The notes beneath the pieces were generated by a model, which ran no database searches, had not been told where the DNA came from, and saw nothing but the letters and a program-made list of their open reading frames with translations. From Candidatus Dormiibacterota bacterium (GTDB taxonomy: Bacteria > Chloroflexota > Dormibacteria > Dormibacterales > Dormibacteraceae): 64,000 nt of DNA. Numbering within the stretch: the first letter of the stretch is position 1; each line of letters begins with the position of its first letter. Positions 22,074 to 51,290 of the stretch are shown piece after piece. The stretch lies in the NCBI GenBank assembly GCA_003151935.1, contig PLYZ01000067.1, positions 33,784 to 97,783 of the forward strand, written 5' to 3'. A program made the translations under genes and the position numbers.

Positions 22074-22325
22074 GTGCGCATCGCGCTCGGAGACATCTTC
22101 TCCTGGCTGGTGACGGCCCTTTTCGGCGTGATTACGCTCCTGCTCGCTTTCGAGAGCTGGGCGCTGCTCACCGATCACAAGCCGATCACCGATTACGTTC
22201 GGCCCGCCGTACACACCTACCCGGGCGTGGCCTTCGCGATCGCGGTCGTGGTCGGCATCCTGTTGGGCCACTTCCTCTGGGGTCCGGCCTACGGCCGGAC
22301 GTCTCCAACGGATCAACCGAAATGA
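22074..22325 (+). CDS. Small two-TM membrane protein (paralogue A)
   Basis: 83 aa. Alignable by eye with the next ORF (…P.T..VR..V...P...FA.AVVVGILLGHFLW). Confidence 0.55.
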   Translation: MRIALGDIFSWLVTALFGVITLLLAFESWALLTDHKPITDYVRPAVHTYPGVAFAIAVVVGILLGHFLWGPAYGRTSPTDQPK

Positions 22326-30388: not shown

Positions 30389-30410
30389 GGCCGCCTAGGA
30401 TGGAGCTGCA

Positions 30411-31145
30411 GTGGCGATTCTGATCGATCGCGAGGAAGTCCAGGCCCTGGTCAAGCAGGGCGCACAGCTGGTCGAGGTGCTTCCCGCGAAGGAATACGCC
30501 GAGGATCACCTTCCAGGAGCTGTGAGCCATCCGCTCCGGCAGCTGGACAAAGAGGCCAACCAGATCGATCGCAACCGGCCCGTGATCGTCTACTGCTGGG
30601 ATGCCGCTTGAGACATGGCGCCCAGGGCCGCGGCGCGGCTCGAGAGTCTCGGATTCGACAGAGTCCATGAGTACAGGGCGGGCAAGCTCGACTGGCTGGC
30701 CGCCGGGCTGCCGGCCGAGGGCGAAAACTCGAACTGCCCACGCGCGGGCGAAGCGTCCCGCAAAGACGTGGTCGTCTGCGGCTTGAAGGACCGCTTGGGC
30801 GACGTCCGCGAGCGCGCGAGACAGGCGGGCTGGGACGTCGCAGTGGTCGTCGACGAAGAGCACATCGTGCTCGGGCTGATGAGGTCGAAGCAGCTGGAGA
30901 TGGATCCCAACCTGGCGATCGAGCTGGCCATGCGCCCGGGTTCCAGCACGTTTCGTCCTTACGTGTCGACCAAAGAGATGGCCGACTTCATGGTTGAGCA
31001 CGACCTCGACAGTGCTCCGATCACGACCTCGGACGGAAAACTCGTCGGCGTGCTGCTGAAGTCGGACACCGTACGCCTGGCGGCGGACGCCACCGCCTGC
31101 ACCCGCAAGCTGATAATCACGGCCGACCCGGCAGCCGACGCTTAG
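30411..31145 (+). CDS. Rhodanese-CBS-pair fusion protein with in-frame TGA (30609-30611) in the active-site loop; candidate selenoprotein (C-W-D-A-A-U)
   Basis: Track ORFs 30411..30611 and 30615..31145 share a frame and are separated only by TGA-GAC. Joined, they read ...RPVIVYCWDAA-U-DMAPRAAARLESLGFDRVHEYRAGKLDW..., one uninterrupted rhodanese domain followed by two CBS motifs. Confidence 0.65.
30625..30641 (+). promoter_or_regulatory. Hairpin 13 nt downstream of the rhodanese UGA (possible SECIS)
   Basis: GGGCCGC-GGC-GCGGCUC forms a 7-bp stem including one G-U pair. The small G-rich loop has no U, so it is less canonical than the other two hairpins. Confidence 0.35.
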
Positions 31146-31149
31146 CGGC

Positions 31150-33309
31150 TCAACCCGCCAGCGCGAGCGGCACCTTGTCCGCCTGCATCTCGTGTGGTGC
31201 TGACCTTGTGAATTGCACAGGTACGGAGAAGTGGAACTCCGTACCCGCGCCGGGCTTACTGTCGAACCAGATTCGCCCGCCGTGCATCTCGACGATCTGC
31301 CTGGCCAGAGGAAGTCCGAGCCCGGTGCCCATTACCTTGGTCGTCGGGTTGTTCGCGCTCCACTGATAGCGGGCGAACAATTTCTCATCGAAGTCGGCCG
31401 GTACGCCGACGCCACGGTCCCTGACGCCGATGACAACTTGGCCGGGGAGCCGGTGTGCCGACACGGTGACCTCACTGCCGTCCGACGAGTATTTGAATGC
31501 ATTGCTGAAGAGGATCTCGATCACCTGAGTCAGCCGGGCCGCGTCGCCCGCGACCGCGGGAAGGTCCGCGTCGATGTCGGTCGTGATTGTGTGTTCAGCG
31601 CGTGATGCGTTCGCGCGGGCGACCGCCTCGTGGAGCGCCGCTGCCAGATCCACCGAAACCAGGTGAACCTCGACCTTGTTCGCCTCGATCCGATCCACGT
31701 CGAGCATCCGATCCAGCATCTCGTCAAGGTGGTGCGCGTCGTTGTAGATGTCGCCCGCGAAGCCCTTGACCATCGGCAGGTCCAGGTCTTCGGCGTCTCG
31801 GAGCAGCTCGCTGAAACCCTGGATTCCGACCAAGGCAGTCCGAATCTCGTGACTCACCATGGTCAGGAACTCGCTCTTCAAGCGGTTCAGCCGCTCGAGC
31901 ACGCTGATGTTCGCCACCGCGGAGACCTCGGCCTGGTGTCTGGCGGTCGTGTCGTCGAACATTGCAATGAAGTAATCGACTTTTCCATCGGGCCGATGGA
32001 CGGCGGTCGTGCTCCAGTGCAACCAGATGCTCGTGCCGTCGCCGCGCACCGCCTCGGTTTCGGACTCGGAGGCGGTGACCGAGCCATTCGACAGGGCGGC
32101 GAGCTGCTCAGCAGCCCGAACCGCCTCCTCGGGCGGAAGGTACGAGGCGAGCGTCGTGCCGACGATCTTTCCTTCCGGCCGGCGCAGCAGGTCGGCGAGT
32201 CGAGGGTTGGCCTGGATGATCGTCATGTCGAGACCGATCCGGACCACGCCGAGCGGGGCGTACAGGATGATCTCGTTGAGAGTCGCGGCGTACTGGCGGG
32301 TCTTGATGAGCAGCGACCTCGACTCGCTATGCGCGTAAACTTGGGTCACCATGACGAGTATCGCGATGGCCCCGAGCACGAAGGTCCGGACGGGCCCGAT
32401 GCTGTTGCCGGTGATCGCCATCCCGATGGCGGTCAGCCCGACTCCCGCGATCGCCACCCATGGCATCGCCAGCTGCCAGACGTCGATCGCCTCGTCCTCG
32501 ACCGCTGCACGTGTGGCTCCGGCCGGCCACAGTGCCGCCAGCCCGATCATCAGATAGCCGGCCACCCAGCCGACGTCCAGCACGTTGCCGATTGCTCGGT
32601 ACGTGCCGTTCGCGTTCAGTAGCGCGAAGGTGGTGTCAGCCAGTGAGATGGCGGCCAGTCCGCAGAGCAGCAGCAGCAGCCGGCCATGCGCCTCGTCCCG
32701 CGCGCGGCGAGTGGCCAGCACCAGGATGGTTCCGATGACGATGTCGCCGGCCGGGTACGCCAAGTTGACGACCTTTTCGAGCAGAGGAGTCGCGGTGTCA
32801 TCGAAAACGATCTTCAGCCCAAGCGTCCAACTGACGAAGAACAACCCGAGAAGGACAATCGCGCCGTCCAGCCACAGCCGGAGCCTGGTCGAGGTGCCCC
32901 GGGGAGGTGAGAAGAAGGCCAGGACGCCGGCCGCTGCCAGCGGGATCGCTAGCAGGAACCCCGCGTCGGCCGCGGACGGATACGGAACACTGACGCCCAG
33001 ACCGACTTCGTAGACCGACCAGACGATCTCGCCCGCGCACCACGTGGCTGCTGACGCCGACAGCAGAATCCAGCCCAGCCGAGGCCTGCCGCTGTTCCGC
33101 CTCGCGGCCAGCACGCACAGGATGGCTGCGACCAATGCCGCGACGCCCTCGCTGATGTCGTCGAAGGCGATGACTCCTCGGTCTCCGCCGATCTTCAGCT
33201 CCACCCACACGACAAAACCGACCACCACGAGGATGGTGGCCGTCGCCGCCCAGAAGAAGACCTTGTAATCCCCAGCTCCGCTCCACGGAGGGGGCCGTGC
33301 CAAGCTCAC
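31150..33309 (-). CDS. Sensor histidine kinase: multi-TM N-terminal domain, PAS, HisKA, HATPase_c (orphan; paralogue of 49077..51290)
   Basis: ...RLKSEFLTMVSHEIRTALVGIQGF... is the H-box; N, G1 and G2 boxes lie near the C-terminus. GTG 33309 was chosen (GGAG 7 nt upstream). The track start at 33513 overlaps gnd. Confidence 0.85.
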   Translation of the reverse strand: MSLARPPPWSGAGDYKVFFWAATATILVVVGFVVWVELKIGGDRGVIAFDDISEGVAALVAAILCVLAARRNSGRPRLGWILLSASAATWCAGEIVWSVYEVGLGVSVPYPSAADAGFLLAIPLAAAGVLAFFSPPRGTSTRLRLWLDGAIVLLGLFFVSWTLGLKIVFDDTATPLLEKVVNLAYPAGDIVIGTILVLATRRARDEAHGRLLLLLCGLAAISLADTTFALLNANGTYRAIGNVLDVGWVAGYLMIGLAALWPAGATRAAVEDEAIDVWQLAMPWVAIAGVGLTAIGMAITGNSIGPVRTFVLGAIAILVMVTQVYAHSESRSLLIKTRQYAATLNEIILYAPLGVVRIGLDMTIIQANPRLADLLRRPEGKIVGTTLASYLPPEEAVRAAEQLAALSNGSVTASESETEAVRGDGTSIWLHWSTTAVHRPDGKVDYFIAMFDDTTARHQAEVSAVANISVLERLNRLKSEFLTMVSHEIRTALVGIQGFSELLRDAEDLDLPMVKGFAGDIYNDAHHLDEMLDRMLDVDRIEANKVEVHLVSVDLAAALHEAVARANASRAEHTITTDIDADLPAVAGDAARLTQVIEILFSNAFKYSSDGSEVTVSAHRLPGQVVIGVRDRGVGVPADFDEKLFARYQWSANNPTTKVMGTGLGLPLARQIVEMHGGRIWFDSKPGAGTEFHFSVPVQFTRSAPHEMQADKVPLALAG

Positions 33310-33423
33310 ATTCGTACTCCAGTCCAGGGTGTCACGCTCCGCTGCGCCCGTCGCCGTGCCGTCGGCTGGGGACTCGCCCCTCCGTTCATATGGGCCCCAG
33401 GCGGCCGTGGCCTTGGTTAATGT

Positions 33424-34866
33424 GTGGTCATGGCTGAGCACGAGATCGGCGTAGTCGGCCTCGCCACGATGGGCGAGAACCTGGCGCGCAACCTCGCGTC
33501 GCACGGTGCGCACGTCGTTGTCTACAACCGGACTCGGAAGCGAACCGACGGTTTCATGGCTGCGTACTCGGCCGGCGGCGACTTCCGGGCGGCCGGCTCG
33601 TTGGAAGAGCTGGCGCGGATCCTCAAGCCGCCTCGCGCGATCCTCCTCATGGTGAAGGCCGGGTCCGCGGTCGACGAGGCGATCGACTCCCTGTCAAAGG
33701 TGCTCGAGCCTGGCGACACGATCATCGACGGCGGCAACTCGCTCTTTCACGACACCCGGCGCCGCGCCGAAGCCTCGGAGAAAGCGGGCCTGGGGTTCAT
33801 CGGCGCGGGCGTCTCAGGTGGGGAGGAGGGAGCCCTCCGTGGACCCAGCATCATGCCGGGCGGCTCGCGCGCGTCTTATGAGCGTGTTGCGGAGATGCTG
33901 ACGGGGATCTCGGCCAAGGTCGATGGAACGCCGTGCTGCGCGTACATCGGACCGGACGGGGCCGGCCACTTCGTGAAGATGGTGCACAACGGGATCGAGT
34001 ACGCCGATATCCAGCTGATCGCCGAGACGTACGACTTCCTACGCCAGGCCCTGGGCATGACGCCGGGGGAGCTGGCTGCTGTCTTTCGCGAGTGGAACGA
34101 GGGCGAGCTGCAGTCCTACCTGATCGAGATCACGGCCAACGTGCTGGCCAAGGACGACGGCGCGAGTGGATCGGCGCTCGTCGACGCGATAGTCGATCAG
34201 GCCGAGCAAAAAGGCACAGGGCGATGGACGAGCGAATCGGCGCTGGAGCTCGGCGTGCCGCTGACGGGCATCACCGAGGCGGTGTTCGCGCGCATCGTCT
34301 CGAGCCAGAAGGCGCAGCGGGTCAAGGCTGCAGACATCCTCGCGGGACCGACGGGACGCGGATCCGCCGGACCCAACCCCGGCCTGGTCGATGATGTGCG
34401 CGAGGCGCTCTACGCGTCGAAGATCGTCGCTTACGCGCAGGGCTTCGAGCACCTGCGCGCCGGATCAAAGGAGTTCGGATGGGACCTCGATCTAGGCGCG
34501 CTCGCCACGATCTGGAGAGGTGGCTGCATCATCCGGGCGCGCTTTCTCGACCGGATCAAGGATGTGTATGCCGAGTCCCCGGACCTACCGAATCTCATGC
34601 TGGCCCCGTTTTTCCAGCAGGCGCTTGCGACAGCGCAAAAGCCATGGCGCTCCGTCGTCAAACAGGCGGTGGACCACGGCGTGCCCATCCCTGCCTTCGC
34701 CTCATCGCTGGCGTATTACGACGGCTACAGGCGGGCGCGCGGCCCCGCCAACCTCATCCAGGGCCTGCGCGACTACTTCGGATCGCACACCTACCATCGA
34801 AGCGATCGCGAGGGCTCCTTCCACACGCGCTGGGCGCAGGATGGAGCCGAGGTCCGGACCGACTAG
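33424..34866 (+). CDS. gnd: 6-phosphogluconate dehydrogenase (decarboxylating)
   Basis: IGVVGLATMGENLARNL...GAGHFVKMVHNGIEYADIQLI... is the canonical Gnd pattern. Start GTG 33424 or ATG 33430. Confidence 0.95.
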   Translation: MVMAEHEIGVVGLATMGENLARNLASHGAHVVVYNRTRKRTDGFMAAYSAGGDFRAAGSLEELARILKPPRAILLMVKAGSAVDEAIDSLSKVLEPGDTIIDGGNSLFHDTRRRAEASEKAGLGFIGAGVSGGEEGALRGPSIMPGGSRASYERVAEMLTGISAKVDGTPCCAYIGPDGAGHFVKMVHNGIEYADIQLIAETYDFLRQALGMTPGELAAVFREWNEGELQSYLIEITANVLAKDDGASGSALVDAIVDQAEQKGTGRWTSESALELGVPLTGITEAVFARIVSSQKAQRVKAADILAGPTGRGSAGPNPGLVDDVREALYASKIVAYAQGFEHLRAGSKEFGWDLDLGALATIWRGGCIIRARFLDRIKDVYAESPDLPNLMLAPFFQQALATAQKPWRSVVKQAVDHGVPIPAFASSLAYYDGYRRARGPANLIQGLRDYFGSHTYHRSDREGSFHTRWAQDGAEVRTD

Positions 34867-39524: not shown

Positions 39525-39938
39525 ATGCCAAAAGTAAAAGGGACGGGCACCAAGCAGTCACCGTGGCAGCTGACGACGCCGAGCGGATCGTCTGAATACC
39601 TGATGTACAGGGACGAATCGCTCGACCCGCCGGCGATCGTCTGCATGGTCGGCAAGACCGAGCTTCGATACGACGTCCGCGCGATCGAGGACCTCCACGC
39701 GATGCTCAAGAAGCAAGGCGACTGGGTGCCGCTCGGAAGCGCCGACGAGCAGAAGCCCGCGGCGGAGGGAACCGTCGAGGCATGGGGCAGGTCGCCGAAG
39801 AACCCGGTTGGCGGATGGTATGGGCTCAAGAAGGGACTGCGCGGCCGGTTCGGCATGTACATGCCGCCGCTGCTGGAGGCGCTGGACCTCGCCGAGGTCG
39901 AGCACAATCCAAAGAACAATCGCATGCGCGCGAAGTGA
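39525..39938 (+). CDS. Conserved hypothetical protein (DUF6855-like)
   Basis: 137-aa ORF with a strong SD (GAGGAGG). The sequence ...PWQLTTPSGSSEYLMYRDE...AIEDLHAMLKKQGDWVPLGSADE...GWYGLKKGLRGRFGMYMPPLLE... recalls a family I know only as uncharacterised. Confidence 0.6.
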   Translation: MPKVKGTGTKQSPWQLTTPSGSSEYLMYRDESLDPPAIVCMVGKTELRYDVRAIEDLHAMLKKQGDWVPLGSADEQKPAAEGTVEAWGRSPKNPVGGWYGLKKGLRGRFGMYMPPLLEALDLAEVEHNPKNNRMRAK

Positions 39939-40210
39939 TCAACCCGCTGCACGAAGCGCAGATCGAATACTGCGTCCCTTGAGACTATCTAGACCAGGCC
40001 GTGGGCCTGGCCAACGAGCTCCTGAGCCGCTGGGCCCCCGTAATGCGCGCGGTCGAGCTCTCGAGCGGCAGCAGCGGCCGATTCGAGGTCACCCTCGACG
40101 GCGAGCTCCTCTTCAGCAAGAAGGCGACCGGGCGGTTCCCGAAGCCGGGTGAAGTTGCCGGGCTCTTTGAGAAAAAGCTCGGCCCGGCCCTGGAGTGGAG
40201 ACAGCATTAG
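39935..40210 (+). CDS. SelW/Rdx-family protein with in-frame TGA (39980-39982) in the CxxU motif; candidate selenoprotein
   Basis: The track ORF 40001..40210 lacks the redox motif. The same frame upstream reads V-INPLHEAQIEYCVP-TGA-DYLDQAVGLANELL.... IEYC-x-x-U is the Rdx signature. GTG 39935 overlaps the upstream stop (GTGA). Confidence 0.75.
39994..40010 (+). promoter_or_regulatory. SECIS-like hairpin downstream of the SelW-like UGA
   Basis: CCAGGCC-GUG-GGCCUGG is a 7-bp perfect stem starting 11 nt after the UGA, with G and U in the apical loop. Confidence 0.6.
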
Positions 40211-47976: not shown

Positions 47977-49080
47977 ATGAAGCTCGAAACTGACGTGGCA
48001 AGCGCGTCGACGCTGCCCTCAACGGTCTATTTGGATCCCGCCGTTCTGGAGCGGGAGAAGGACCGCATCTTTTACCGTACGTGGCAGCTCGTCGCGCACA
48101 TGAGCGAGCTGGCGAGGGTCGGTGACTTCAAGCCGGCCAGCATCCTCGACGAGCCGATTCTCTTGACCCATGCACAGGACGGAAAGCTGCGCGGCTTCTA
48201 CAACGTCTGCCGTCACCGCGCCGCGCAGGTCGTGACGACGCGCGGAAATCGAAAGTCGCTCCAGTGCGGGTACCACGGCTGGGTCTACGGCCTCGACGGA
48301 AAGCTCCAGGTCGCGCGAGAGATGGAAGGCACCCTGAACTTCGACAAGGCGGACTTCGGCCTCGTGCCGATTCGTGTCGACACCCTCGGTCCCTTCGTGT
48401 TCGCCAACCTCGACCCCGCCGCCGCCCCGCTGGCGGACTGGATTGGCGCCATCCCCTCGGAGATCGCGTCGGCCGGGTACGACATGTCGAGCATGCGACG
48501 CATCGAGCGTCGCGACTACGACATCGCGTGCAACTGGAAGGTATACGTGGACAACTACCTCGAGGGGTATCACCTGCCCATCGCGCATCCGGGCCTCTTC
48601 AAGGAGCTGGAGTACGACCAGTACCGAGTGGAGACGTTCCGCTATTACTCAAAGCAGCACGCGCCGATCCGCGAGCTCAAGCCAGGCGAGGTGCCGGGTC
48701 GCGACCGCCGCTACATCCGAATGCCGGGTGCGGAAGACAACGCCCTTTACTACTGGATCTTTCCCAACACCATGTTGAACATCTACCAGGACAACATCAG
48801 CACCAACGTCATCCTCCCGTTGGGAGTCGATCGCACTCTAACGATCTTCGAATGGTTCTTCGCGGAGCCGGGCACGGGCGCCGGCTGGGAATCGATGCAG
48901 CAGACGATCGCTTTCTCGGACGAGATCCAGCAGGAGGACATCGCGGTCTGCGAGCAGGTGCAGAAAGGCCTGAGGTCGCGCTCCTACAGCCGCGGCCGCT
49001 TCTCCGCGCTGCGCGAGAACGGCGTGCACCACTTCCAGTCTCTGATCACAGAATTCCTGGGCCGCGACCAGATCGGCTAA
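47977..49080 (+). CDS. Rieske [2Fe-2S] non-haem-iron oxygenase, alpha-subunit type
   Basis: CRHR...CGYHGW Rieske motif and a catalytic-domain N-W-K...E-x-Y-H pattern. ATG 47977 was chosen; the upstream 269 codons of the track ORF are antisense to the amidohydrolase gene. Confidence 0.85.
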   Translation: MKLETDVASASTLPSTVYLDPAVLEREKDRIFYRTWQLVAHMSELARVGDFKPASILDEPILLTHAQDGKLRGFYNVCRHRAAQVVTTRGNRKSLQCGYHGWVYGLDGKLQVAREMEGTLNFDKADFGLVPIRVDTLGPFVFANLDPAAAPLADWIGAIPSEIASAGYDMSSMRRIERRDYDIACNWKVYVDNYLEGYHLPIAHPGLFKELEYDQYRVETFRYYSKQHAPIRELKPGEVPGRDRRYIRMPGAEDNALYYWIFPNTMLNIYQDNISTNVILPLGVDRTLTIFEWFFAEPGTGAGWESMQQTIAFSDEIQQEDIAVCEQVQKGLRSRSYSRGRFSALRENGVHHFQSLITEFLGRDQIG

Positions 49081-51290
49081 GCGTCAGGGGCCTTCGGCGG
49101 CGGGGCCGGAAGCGTGAAGCGGAAGTCCGAACCCGAGCCGAGAGCGGTGTCGACCCAGATCCGCCCGCCGTGCAGCTCGACGATTTGCCGCGCGATGGCA
49201 AGGCCCAGCCCGGTGCCGATGATCTTGCCGCTCGTCTTCTCGTACCGCTCGTAGCGACTGAAGAGCCGCTTTGCGAATTCGGGCGCGATGCCGGCGCCAT
49301 GATCGCGGACGCTGATCTCGACGAACCCTTCGCCGGCCTGGCTGGAGACGAGTATCTCGCCGCCGTCGGGGGAGTACTTGACCGCGTTTGTCAGCAGGTT
49401 GGAGATGATCTGGGCGACCCGGTCGGCATCGCACTGCGCAACCGGCTGCGCCGGGTCGAGGTTGACGCCGATCACGTGATCCTGGCTCGACGCTCGAGCC
49501 CGCTCGACCGCCTCCAGCACGAGGACGTTGATGTCTAACGGTTCTATGTGTAGCGTCAGGCGGCCGGCCTCGATCCGGTCGAGGTCGAGCATGTCGTTGA
49601 TCATGCGGTTGAGCCGCTGGGCATCCTTGTTGATGTCGGCGGCAAAGGATTTGACGTCTTCCGCGGCAAGGTCCGAGTCGCGGAGCATCTCGCTGAAGCC
49701 CTGGATGCCGACGAGGCCAGTGCGGAACTCGTGGCTCACCAGCGTGATGAACTCGCTCTTTAGCTGGTTCAAGCGCTCGATGCCGGCCAGGTGGGCGGTA
49801 GCCGCCTCGTTGGCCGCATGTTGCGCGTCAGTGTCTTCGTACATCGCGAGGAAATAGTCGACCCGGCCCGCCGCGTTGCGCACGGTGGTCGCACTCCAGT
49901 GAAGCCAGGCGCTGGTCCGGTCACCCCGGACGGCGCGACTGTCCGACTCGATGGTGTCGACTGCCCCGTTCCACAGGGGCTGGAAAAGCTGGAAGACACG
50001 CGCGAACTCGCTCGGGTCGAGGAACGCCGCGACCGGCCTTCCGACCAGGTGATTAGAGTCCACCCGCATCAGGGTGGCCATGCGCGGATTCGCGTCGATG
50101 ATCCGCATGTCGATGCCTACGCGCAAGATGCCGAGCGGGGCGTGCGTGATGATCTCGTCCAGCAGGTTGTTGCGGCGCTCCACCTGGTTTTCGGCCTGCT
50201 GGCTCTTGACGAGCAGCGACAGGGAGTCTCGGTGGGAGAGGACCTGGCTTCCCACCAGCAGGAGTCCGATGCTTCCAGCCAGGACTGTCTCGAAGCGGTC
50301 GAGGGCCTGGCCGCCCATGGCGAGCTTCATTGCGGTGACCGCCGCCGCAAGCAGGGCGACCCAGGGAAGCGCCAGCTGCCAGAGCTCGATCGGGCCTTCA
50401 GCCGCCACCTTCTCCGTGTCGGTGGCAGGCCAGATCGGCGCCAGCGCGATCATCAGGTAGCCGATCACCCAGCCCGCGTCGAGAAGGCTGCCGATTGTGC
50501 CGTAGGAGCCGCTTGCCGTCAGGTAGGCGAAAGTGCTGTCGGCAAGAGCCGCTGCAGCCAGGCCGCCCAGGAGCAGGAACATTCTGCCCAGCTCCGTCCT
50601 GCGCGCGCGTCGCAGCGCCAGCACGAGAACGGTGATCGTGATGATGTCGCCCACGGGGTAAGCAAGACCGATCAGGCGGGCGGGCGGTGACGCCGCCGAC
50701 GTGTCGTAGACGTTGCCAAGCCCCAGCGCCCAGGCTACAAACAGCAGCGACAGGGCGACGATGGCGCCCGCCAGGAGCGCCTCGCCTCGCGTGGTCAACC
50801 GGCTCGGCGCCGAAGTGAACGCGAACACCCCCGCTACCGCGAGCGGAATCGCCAGCAGGAAGCCGGCGTCTGCGGCAGAGGGGAATGGGACGCTCACCCC
50901 CATGCCGACCTCGTAGACGGACCAAACCACCTCGCCGATTCCCCAACTGGCGGCGGACGCAGCGAAGAATCCCCAGGCGAGGCGGGTCCGGTTTTCGGTA
51001 CGGAAGGCCGCCAGACCGCAGCTGACCGCGGCGAGGATCGCGGCGACCGCCTCTCCGATGTCGTCCACAGCGACTGTGGCGTCGTCGCCCCCGATGCGCA
51101 GCCCAGTCCAGGCGACGAATGCCACCGCCAGGATGGCGGCCGCGGTGGCCGCGATCGTGAATGCTCGCCAGCCTCTGAAACCGAAACCGCTGACGACCGG
51201 GACCAATCGGGACGCGGGCGATAAAACCAGGTTGCCCGGAGGCGCTCGCCGCAAAGCCGGAGCGAACGTTGGAGAAGGAGATTTGGCCAT
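49077..51290 (-). CDS. Sensor histidine kinase: multi-TM N-terminal domain, PAS, HisKA, HATPase_c (orphan; paralogue of 31150..33309)
   Basis: Collinear by eye with the other kinase across the TM region (…WSVYEVG.GVSVP.PSAADAGFLLAIPLA.AGV.AF…) and the catalytic core (LKSEFITLVSHEFRTGLVGIQGFSE). ATG 51290 is preceded by GGAG. Confidence 0.9.
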   Translation of the reverse strand: MAKSPSPTFAPALRRAPPGNLVLSPASRLVPVVSGFGFRGWRAFTIAATAAAILAVAFVAWTGLRIGGDDATVAVDDIGEAVAAILAAVSCGLAAFRTENRTRLAWGFFAASAASWGIGEVVWSVYEVGMGVSVPFPSAADAGFLLAIPLAVAGVFAFTSAPSRLTTRGEALLAGAIVALSLLFVAWALGLGNVYDTSAASPPARLIGLAYPVGDIITITVLVLALRRARRTELGRMFLLLGGLAAAALADSTFAYLTASGSYGTIGSLLDAGWVIGYLMIALAPIWPATDTEKVAAEGPIELWQLALPWVALLAAAVTAMKLAMGGQALDRFETVLAGSIGLLLVGSQVLSHRDSLSLLVKSQQAENQVERRNNLLDEIITHAPLGILRVGIDMRIIDANPRMATLMRVDSNHLVGRPVAAFLDPSEFARVFQLFQPLWNGAVDTIESDSRAVRGDRTSAWLHWSATTVRNAAGRVDYFLAMYEDTDAQHAANEAATAHLAGIERLNQLKSEFITLVSHEFRTGLVGIQGFSEMLRDSDLAAEDVKSFAADINKDAQRLNRMINDMLDLDRIEAGRLTLHIEPLDINVLVLEAVERARASSQDHVIGVNLDPAQPVAQCDADRVAQIISNLLTNAVKYSPDGGEILVSSQAGEGFVEISVRDHGAGIAPEFAKRLFSRYERYEKTSGKIIGTGLGLAIARQIVELHGGRIWVDTALGSGSDFRFTLPAPPPKAPDA

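Follow-up and report, generated by a model that had tools for sequence, protein, structure and literature searches.

A rhodanese–CBS gene of Dormibacterota with an in-frame UGA very probably read as selenocysteine

The window examined here is a 64-kb stretch of contig PLYZ01000067.1 from a Candidatus Dormiibacterota bacterium, and all coordinates below refer to it unless a locus is named. At 30411-31145 it presents a puzzle: are these two short genes, or one gene whose internal TGA encodes selenocysteine (Sec)? Two open reading frames (ORFs), 30411..30611 and 30615..31145, lie in one frame with nothing but TGA-GAC between them, a layout reported in a first-pass annotation and borne out by the ORF map and the translation. 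The first begins with GTG at 30411, runs for 66 codons to 30608 and closes at the TGA at 30609-30611. There follow GAC (30612-30614) and an ATG at 30615, from which the second ORF extends for 176 residues in the same frame to a TAG stop at 31143-31145. We find that this is a single gene with a conserved UGA, Cys/Sec homology at that position, a conserved RNA element of the Sec insertion sequence (SECIS) type and a rhodanese–CBS domain architecture. On these comparisons it is highly probable that 30411-31145 is one gene that genuinely encodes Sec at its UGA.

One reading frame and one domain architecture

When the TGA is read through, the joined product, ...NRPVIVYCWDAA-U-DMAPRAAARLESLGF..., is 244 residues long and has Cys62 and, as predicted, Sec67 in an active-site stretch that reads VIVY-C-WDAA-U-DMAPRAAARLESLGF. 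The features of the locus are as follows.

30403..30406, forward strand: putative Shine-Dalgarno sequence GGAG, 4 nucleotides (nt) 5' of the GTG, read off the sequence
30411..31145, forward strand: complete coding sequence of the candidate rhodanese–CBS selenoprotein, 244 residues, with the in-frame TGA as codon 67 (ORF layout, Pfam, full-length orthologues in 80 genomes)
30429..30701, forward strand: rhodanese homology domain, residues 7-97, with the TGA inside its active-site loop (Pfam PF00581)
30594..30596, forward strand: TGC encoding the canonical rhodanese catalytic Cys, Cys62, where a β-strand ends (TGC in 80/80 aligned sequences)
30609..30611, forward strand: in-frame TGA, predicted to be read as Sec67 in the motif C-W-D-A-A-U-D (conservation, Cys in homologues, genetic code not reassigned)
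30625..30641, forward strand: SECIS-type hairpin with a 7-bp stem (30625-30631/30635-30641) and the apical loop GGC (30632-30634) (folding, frozen synonymous sites)
30765..31085, forward strand: CBS pair (Bateman module), residues ~119-225, boundaries approximate, the second repeat being the one detected by Pfam (Pfam and fold match)

The proposal that neither half is complete by itself, and that together they form a rhodanese domain followed by a CBS pair, was upheld by Pfam searches with the pieces and with the joined product and by a fold match. The 66-residue piece alone covers no more than positions 2-70 of the Pfam Rhodanese model, which has 102, whereas the joined protein (with U written as C) matches positions 2-101 over residues 7-97 (E 7.2e-13; 49.3 bits against a 22.2-bit cutoff). 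The rhodanese domain is thus complete only if the TGA is read through. Besides the score above the gathering threshold, the domain has the invariant Cys62 that opens the active-site loop after the central β-strand. In the C-terminal half, Pfam detects a CBS repeat (PF00571) at residues 174-222 (E 3e-8; 34.1 bits against a 24-bit cutoff). Of the two tandem repeats that make up a CBS pair in one module, Pfam finds this one, and the fold match covers the whole C-terminal half.

For the structure, we built an AlphaFold2 model of a Cys form of the family, P0004, from a 31-sequence alignment, as a stand-in for the window protein (mean predicted local distance difference test score, pLDDT, 82; predicted template modelling score, pTM, 0.61). 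Cys63 of this model, the equivalent of Cys62, lies directly after β-strand 59-62, which is the canonical position of the rhodanese catalytic Cys. It opens a seven-residue loop, C-W-D-T-V-C-D, that leads into helix 70-80, with the second Cys/Sec as the penultimate loop residue at the N-terminal end of the helix. In Foldseek comparisons the C-terminal half of the model matches nucleotide-binding CBS pairs over ~120-130 columns with E values of 1e-10 to 1e-9, among them MgtE with ATP, AcuB with AMP and ADP, and CBSX2 with AMP.

Conservation of the TGA and its cysteine counterparts

We scanned one genome per GTDB species, obtained 387 related stretches and kept the best 80 loci. By their record labels these comprise 37 Dormibacterota, 16 soil metagenome-assembled genomes (MAGs) labelled 'Chloroflexi', 18 Actinomycetota and 9 others. 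Only L074, a syntenic orthologue, has TGC at the aligned codon, the other 79 loci having TGA; the window and those 79 loci constitute the 80 TGA-form sequences referred to below. The loci are 57-87% identical to the window in protein sequence, and on both flanks of the TGA third codon positions vary, with first and second positions and the amino acids conserved.

These data bear directly on the notion that a nonsense mutation or a miscalled base has broken an ordinary Cys-containing rhodanese–CBS gene. TGA and TGC are one base apart, and the gene callers of every source inspected split the gene into a 66-residue Rhodanese and a 176-residue CBS protein, as a pseudogene or an error would have it. 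Nonetheless, because the same TGA recurs in 79/80 independently assembled species genomes with a coding signature around it (and also underlies most of the truncated 50%-identity representatives described below), a chance feature, a pseudogene or a sequencing error is excluded as its source. Purifying selection persists on both halves, the identities of 57-87% exclude a single contaminating source, and conservation of the RNA hairpin further along goes specifically with the TGA. We accordingly assign a broken gene or an assembly error a vanishingly small probability.

The split annotation is itself pervasive. A protein search recovered >100 clusters of ~175-residue 'CBS domain' proteins, 75-90% identical and starting MAPRAAARLESLGF, which correspond to the second half, with the ATG that follows the TGA taken as its start; many of them are labelled Candidatus Dormibacteraeota, and NCBI records name this half 'CBS domain-containing protein'. 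The same locus is present in Stordalen Mire and Joint Genome Institute (JGI) soil metagenomes, where it is always called as a 66-residue 'Rhodanese' and a 176-residue 'CBS' protein. Overall, >100 of the 90%-identity clusters and most of the 50%-identity family representatives are such truncated calls.

Could the two halves nevertheless be made as two polypeptides, with termination at the TGA, reinitiation at the ATG at 30615 through TGA-GAC-ATG coupling, and reassembly of a split rhodanese? The codon two places 3' of the TGA is indeed ATG in the window and in 51/80 loci, and this spacing can support termination-reinitiation. In the other 29 loci, though, that codon is CTG, CTC, CTT, ATC, ATT, ATA, ACA, GTC or similar (coding for Leu, Ile, Val or Thr), mostly not start-capable, and the residue after TGA-GAC behaves as an ordinary internal Met/Leu/Ile. 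Separate translation of the second half is therefore unlikely. Moreover, the chain would be broken within the active-site loop, exactly at the position of the homologues' conserved Cys, leaving that Cys column unexplained, and full-length single-chain Cys forms exist. We regard the production of two chains as very improbable and retain that of a single chain.

The codons that flank the UGA are constrained as well: Asp +1 is GAC in 79/80 sequences, and Ala -1 is encoded only by GCT or GCC, never by GCG or GCA. This suggests selection on the immediate context of the UGA.

The TGA had been proposed to lie where a subgroup of rhodaneses has a second Cys, and the homologues agree. About 10 full-length homologues of 225-237 residues came from the same protein search; of the 10 close ones, 9 read YCWDxxCDLSPRAA, with Cys at the TGA column, and the tenth has Arg. 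An exhaustive search with P0004 against 1.84 billion 50%-identity representatives returned 147 proteins at E <= 1e-30. Among the best 150 representatives, ~58 are full length and ~85-90 truncated (tallied by eye), the latter opening with M[SA]PRAA... straight past the U column or starting further downstream; by this tally, most of the family seems to consist of Sec forms. A common motif, YC-x4-C-D-[LM]-S-x-R-A-A, runs through the full-length representatives, with Cys at the Sec column in ~51/58 (counted by eye). Three representatives (P0155, P0158 and P0161) have lost this Cys. Four others (P0134, P0157, P0175 and P0179) have lost the canonical Cys, with Ser or Gly in its stead, and kept the second one, a pattern in the sequences that hints that the second chalcogen position is the essential one.

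The downstream hairpin and the probable capacity to decode Sec

Folding confirmed a previously noted hairpin at 30625-30641 with a 7-bp stem and a GGC loop, starting 13 nt after the UGA, with a UGA-to-loop spacing of 20 nt. Counting the T of TGA as 0, the 80 TGA forms share G(+16) R(+17) GCCGC(+18 to +22) in the 5' arm, GNN(+23 to +25) in the loop and GCGGC(+26 to +30) UC(+31 to +32) in the 3' arm. The common element has 7 bp in its stem and a loop of 3 nt, G[G/U]N, and the minimum free energy (MFE) of the minimal hairpin is -11.4 to -15.5 kcal/mol. In the consensus model of the bacterial SECIS (bSECIS), the loop has 3-9 nt and the upper stem 4-16 bp, G occupies the first two loop positions, mostly as G[G/U]N, and the spacing is 16-37 nt with an MFE <= -7.5 kcal/mol (PMC13188914). 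The hairpin lies within all four constraints of that model, and its GGC loop, which the first-pass annotation had thought less SECIS-like, in fact fits the consensus. An outer stem, GAGAC...GUCUC, is predicted in the window sequence; columns 37-41 vary in other loci, and we leave it out of the element.

Across 74 distinct sequences, 99.8% of the stem cells are paired. Codons +6 to +10 (Ala GCC, Ala GCG, Ala GCG, Arg CGG and Leu CTC) have zero codon entropy in 80/80 sequences, as against 0.84-1.98 bits (mean 1.46) at 18 other conserved 4- to 6-fold degenerate codons of the gene (Mann-Whitney p = 4e-4). At Arg +5 only AGG, CGG, CGA and AGA occur, the third-base purine pairing with U+31, whereas Arg codons elsewhere in the gene favour CGC and CGT. 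This codon usage indicates that RNA-level selection acts on the hairpin. Further, the stem differs in 4/5 distinct Cys-form genes (GCCGCCCGCCGGC, GGCGCCTGGCGGC, GCCGCATGGCGGCTG and GGTGCGTGGCGGC) versus 1/80 TGA forms (Fisher p = 1.2e-5), a contrast indicating that the constraint is tied to the TGA and is gone where the TGA has been replaced. One Cys form (TGC; L088 1832-2539) has the exact hairpin sequence, GCCGCGTGGCGGCTC, intact, as might be expected if Sec had recently given way to Cys.

Two further genes of the window combine an in-frame TGA with such a hairpin. First, a SelW/Rdx-like gene at 39935-40210 on the forward strand has its TGA at 39980-39982 in the context IEYC-VP-U-DYL, a CxxU motif; the joined sequence matches Pfam Rdx with E 1e-19, and the hairpin CCAGGCC-GUG-GGCCUGG lies 18 nt after the UGA. 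Second, a DsbA/FrnE-like gene at 9399-8767 on the reverse strand has its TGA at 9345-9343 in the context FSDYV-U-PWCY, a UxxC motif; the joined sequence matches Pfam DSBA with E 1.5e-31, and the hairpin CGACUCG-GUC-CGAGUCG lies 21 nt after the UGA. Both hairpins have stems of 7-8 bp and a 3-nt loop, and both families are in the selenoprotein catalogues (2026 catalogue, 2022 review). A scan of the window for a TGA followed by such a hairpin at that spacing gave 9 matches versus 2.9 +/- 1.5 in shuffles, of which only the rhodanese–CBS, SelW-like and DsbA-like genes sit in continuous coding frames.

As side observations on these genes, gene callers give only a 55-69-residue tail of the SelW/Rdx-like gene, and its UGA, like that of the rhodanese–CBS gene, is followed by GAC. 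A TGA at 22315 on the reverse strand is accompanied by an 8-bp GC-rich hairpin, GTCCGGCC-GTA-GGCCGGAC (~22282-22315), with no continuous reading frame across it; this hairpin is probably intergenic or terminator-like and not a fourth SECIS. TGA is the commonest ordinary stop among the window genes and terminates most of them, which rules out a reassignment of the genetic code.

With regard to the Sec machinery, a tblastn search with E. coli SelD of ~707 kb, comprising the window with flanks and loci, gave one match, in L070. This SelD gene (L070 1432-2493, reverse strand; also in L093 and L094) lies ~1.6 kb from the rhodanese–CBS(U) gene in two Actinomycetota MAGs. It has an in-frame TGA of its own at the position of E. 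coli Cys17 (SHGAG-U-ACK), and NCBI annotates it from a start after that TGA. Because a Sec-type SelD adjoins the orthologue in these two MAGs, at least some carriers of the gene are probably Sec decoders; for Dormibacterota the evidence of Sec decoding is indirect. We also observed Prok-JAB, ThiS and PALP genes 3' of SelD, in the same order in L095 and L096, which look like a sulfur-carrier cysteine-synthesis cassette.

Several observations weigh against Sec decoding at this locus and the function that we propose for it. There is no selA, selB, selC (tRNA-Sec) or selD within the 64-kb window; ARAGORN found no tRNA-Sec in the sequence that it covered, the window and L001-L060; and E. coli SelA and SelB had no tblastn match in the same ~707 kb. 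Neither the SelD look-ups nor the cluster look-up gave a Dormibacterota attribution. As to the Sec machinery expected of a carrier genome, a Sec-type selD stands by the orthologue in two Actinomycetota MAGs, and none was seen in the window or in the Dormibacterota sequence searched. Rfam gave no SECIS or tRNA-Sec match in the whole window at the gathering threshold or in 30540-30720 at a permissive one, a result that is uninformative in that its bacterial SECIS models are family-specific. The stem displays no compensatory covariation, 5/7 pairs being invariant and one alternating between G-U and A-U; with a stem so nearly invariant, support for the RNA element therefore comes from the frozen synonymous sites and the contrast of Sec and Cys forms. 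Synteny yields no functional clue, as no neighbour is tied to sulfur or selenium metabolism. Finally, the basis of the chemistry proposed below is the position of the motif and a model of moderate confidence, with a pLDDT of ~71 in the loop block.

The lack of Sec machinery in the Dormibacterota sequence searched would suit a selenium-free programmed read-through, in which the hairpin stimulates near-cognate decoding as Trp, Cys or Arg, or the UGA is read by a suppressor tRNA specific to the lineage; a hairpin past a stop codon can also promote read-through. Yet the aligned residue of the homologues is Cys, the signature of Sec/Cys pairs, and both the hairpin geometry and the G[G/U]N loop fit the SelB-dependent bSECIS model. 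The window's two other TGA genes are members of classic selenoprotein families and have the TGA within CxxU or UxxC, a carrier genome has the Sec-type SelD beside the gene, and TGA is the main ordinary stop codon here. We therefore judge selenium-free read-through improbable, and favour Sec insertion at this UGA.

The gene neighbourhood is conserved only within sublineages, in which it includes an MFS transporter, a C92-like peptidase, a methyltransferase, 6PGD and a glycosyltransferase. Immediately downstream of the rhodanese–CBS gene in the window, and convergent with it, is a PAS/HisKA/HATPase sensor histidine kinase at 31150-33513 on the reverse strand. A paralogue at 49077-51290, also on the reverse strand, has a very similar multi-pass N-terminal membrane domain. 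The orthologous kinase is among the three nearest flanking genes in 9 related loci and immediately downstream in 7 of them.

Proposed function, significance and relation to known selenoproteins

From the conserved UGA and its RNA element we infer actual Sec insertion and, with the motif and the domain architecture, selenium–sulfur chemistry and regulation by a ligand. In the mechanism that we propose, the ribosome would pass the UGA at 30609-30611 without stopping, with the SECIS hairpin at 30625-30641 recruiting SelB that carries Sec-tRNA(Sec). Sec would be inserted as residue 67 to give a 244-residue protein that has the rhodanese domain at its N terminus and the CBS pair at its C terminus. 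Cys62 and Sec67 would share the active-site cradle and might form a redox-active selenenylsulfide or a sulfane-carrying couple, making the enzyme a sulfur-transferring or thiol-dependent reductase-type rhodanese as opposed to a simple one-Cys sulfurtransferase. Sec67 would be the main nucleophile, because Sec normally marks a catalytic redox residue and because some Cys homologues drop the first Cys and not the second. The CBS pair, in turn, may tune activity on binding an adenosine-type ligand. We hold this specific chemistry tentatively, with its chances approaching even but short of it.

Dormibacterota are regarded as aerobic bacteria that are dominant in nutrient-poor soils. Selenoproteins are rarely retained by aerobic bacteria according to a 2026 review of prokaryotic selenoproteomes. 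Together with the SelW-like and DsbA-like genes of the window, the rhodanese–CBS gene suggests routine use of Sec by Dormibacterota. Recognition of the Sec codon would also mend a systematic split-gene annotation error across many soil MAGs. Further, a mostly-Sec family with natural Cys variants, and with variants that lack the first Cys, would provide a system for probing the second chalcogen in the rhodanese loop. A wider reading would join these strands: Sec decoding would be pervasive and hitherto unreported in Dormibacterota, an uncultured soil phylum, and in soil Actinomycetota; the second chalcogen of C-x4-[U/C]-D, and not the canonical Cys, would be the true nucleophile; and the fused CBS pair would make the protein a nucleotide-gated selenoenzyme. 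In its entirety we consider this possible and rather doubtful, and lean against it.

Rhodanese-related selenoproteins are, as had been assumed from the outset, an established group. The 2026 review lists five rhodanese-type forms: UxxS, UxxG, CxU (NF041203), UxxG and TsoB with UxxxxU (NF045694). If correctly interpreted, the present protein would be a sixth form and the first fused to a CBS pair, its Sec at a new position (C-x4-U). With forms 1-4 (PF00581 UxxS and UxxG; NF041203 'LYCAU' CxU) it shares a bacterial rhodanese domain, a Sec in or next to the active-site loop and a SECIS within the ORF. In forms 1, 2 and 4, however, Sec replaces the canonical catalytic Cys (U-x-x-S/G), which the present protein retains; form 3 has its Sec two residues past the Cys (C-x-U), as against five here (C-x4-U-D). 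The score against NF041203, 24.7 bits versus a 115-bit cutoff, likewise separates the two, and none of forms 1-4 is listed with a CBS pair. TsoB resembles the present protein in the x4 spacing between two chalcogen residues, as judged from the catalogue listing of UxxxxU, and has weak homology to the rhodanese part (E 2e-6, query residues 5-117). It differs in having Sec at both positions and a DsbD-like membrane module, as against one Sec and a CBS pair here, and the joined protein scores 26.1 bits against the 805-bit cutoff of NF045694.

The first-pass annotation knew of no CBS-fused Sec-rhodanese, and none came to light in the 2026 catalogue or among NCBIfam models, of which none reaches its cutoff on the joined protein, NF041203 and TsoB being sub-threshold matches only. 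The text of the 2026 review has no 'CBS', 'CxxxxU' or Dormibacterota, with prior mention elsewhere possible; 'CBS' does not occur in the 2022 review or the deep-Sep paper; and literature searches on Dormibacter with selenocysteine or selenium, and on rhodanese selenoproteins with a CBS domain, returned nothing relevant.

The best relative of the rhodanese half with a solved structure is BH2092 of Bacillus halodurans (PDB 3NHV, 3O3W; E 2e-10), a single-domain rhodanese of unknown function on which our literature search found no publication. Its loop, YCWGPAC, aligns as ITYCWGPACNGATKAAAKF with VIVYCWDAAUDMAPRAAARL, placing its second Cys opposite Sec67. Unlike the window protein, it has Cys and not Sec, lacks the CBS pair and has Asn in place of the invariant Asp after the second chalcogen. 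The C-terminal half, for its part, has the same fold by Foldseek as the CBS-pair modules of the MgtE cytosolic domain, AcuB and CBSX2, whose matched structures were solved with ATP, AMP or ADP. The identity to these matched pairs is only 15-25%, and no fusion to a rhodanese selenoenzyme is among their architectures. The SelW/Rdx-like (CxxU) and DsbA-like (UxxC) proteins of the window share with it a UGA followed at 18-21 nt by a 7-8-bp hairpin with a G[U/G]N loop; having other folds and motifs, they are evidence of Sec decoding and not relatives. The recoding mechanism is thus a standard one, and rhodanese selenoproteins are already known. What appears to be undescribed is the Sec position C-x4-U-D with the canonical Cys kept, the fusion to a CBS pair, a family made up mainly of Sec forms, and the host phylum.

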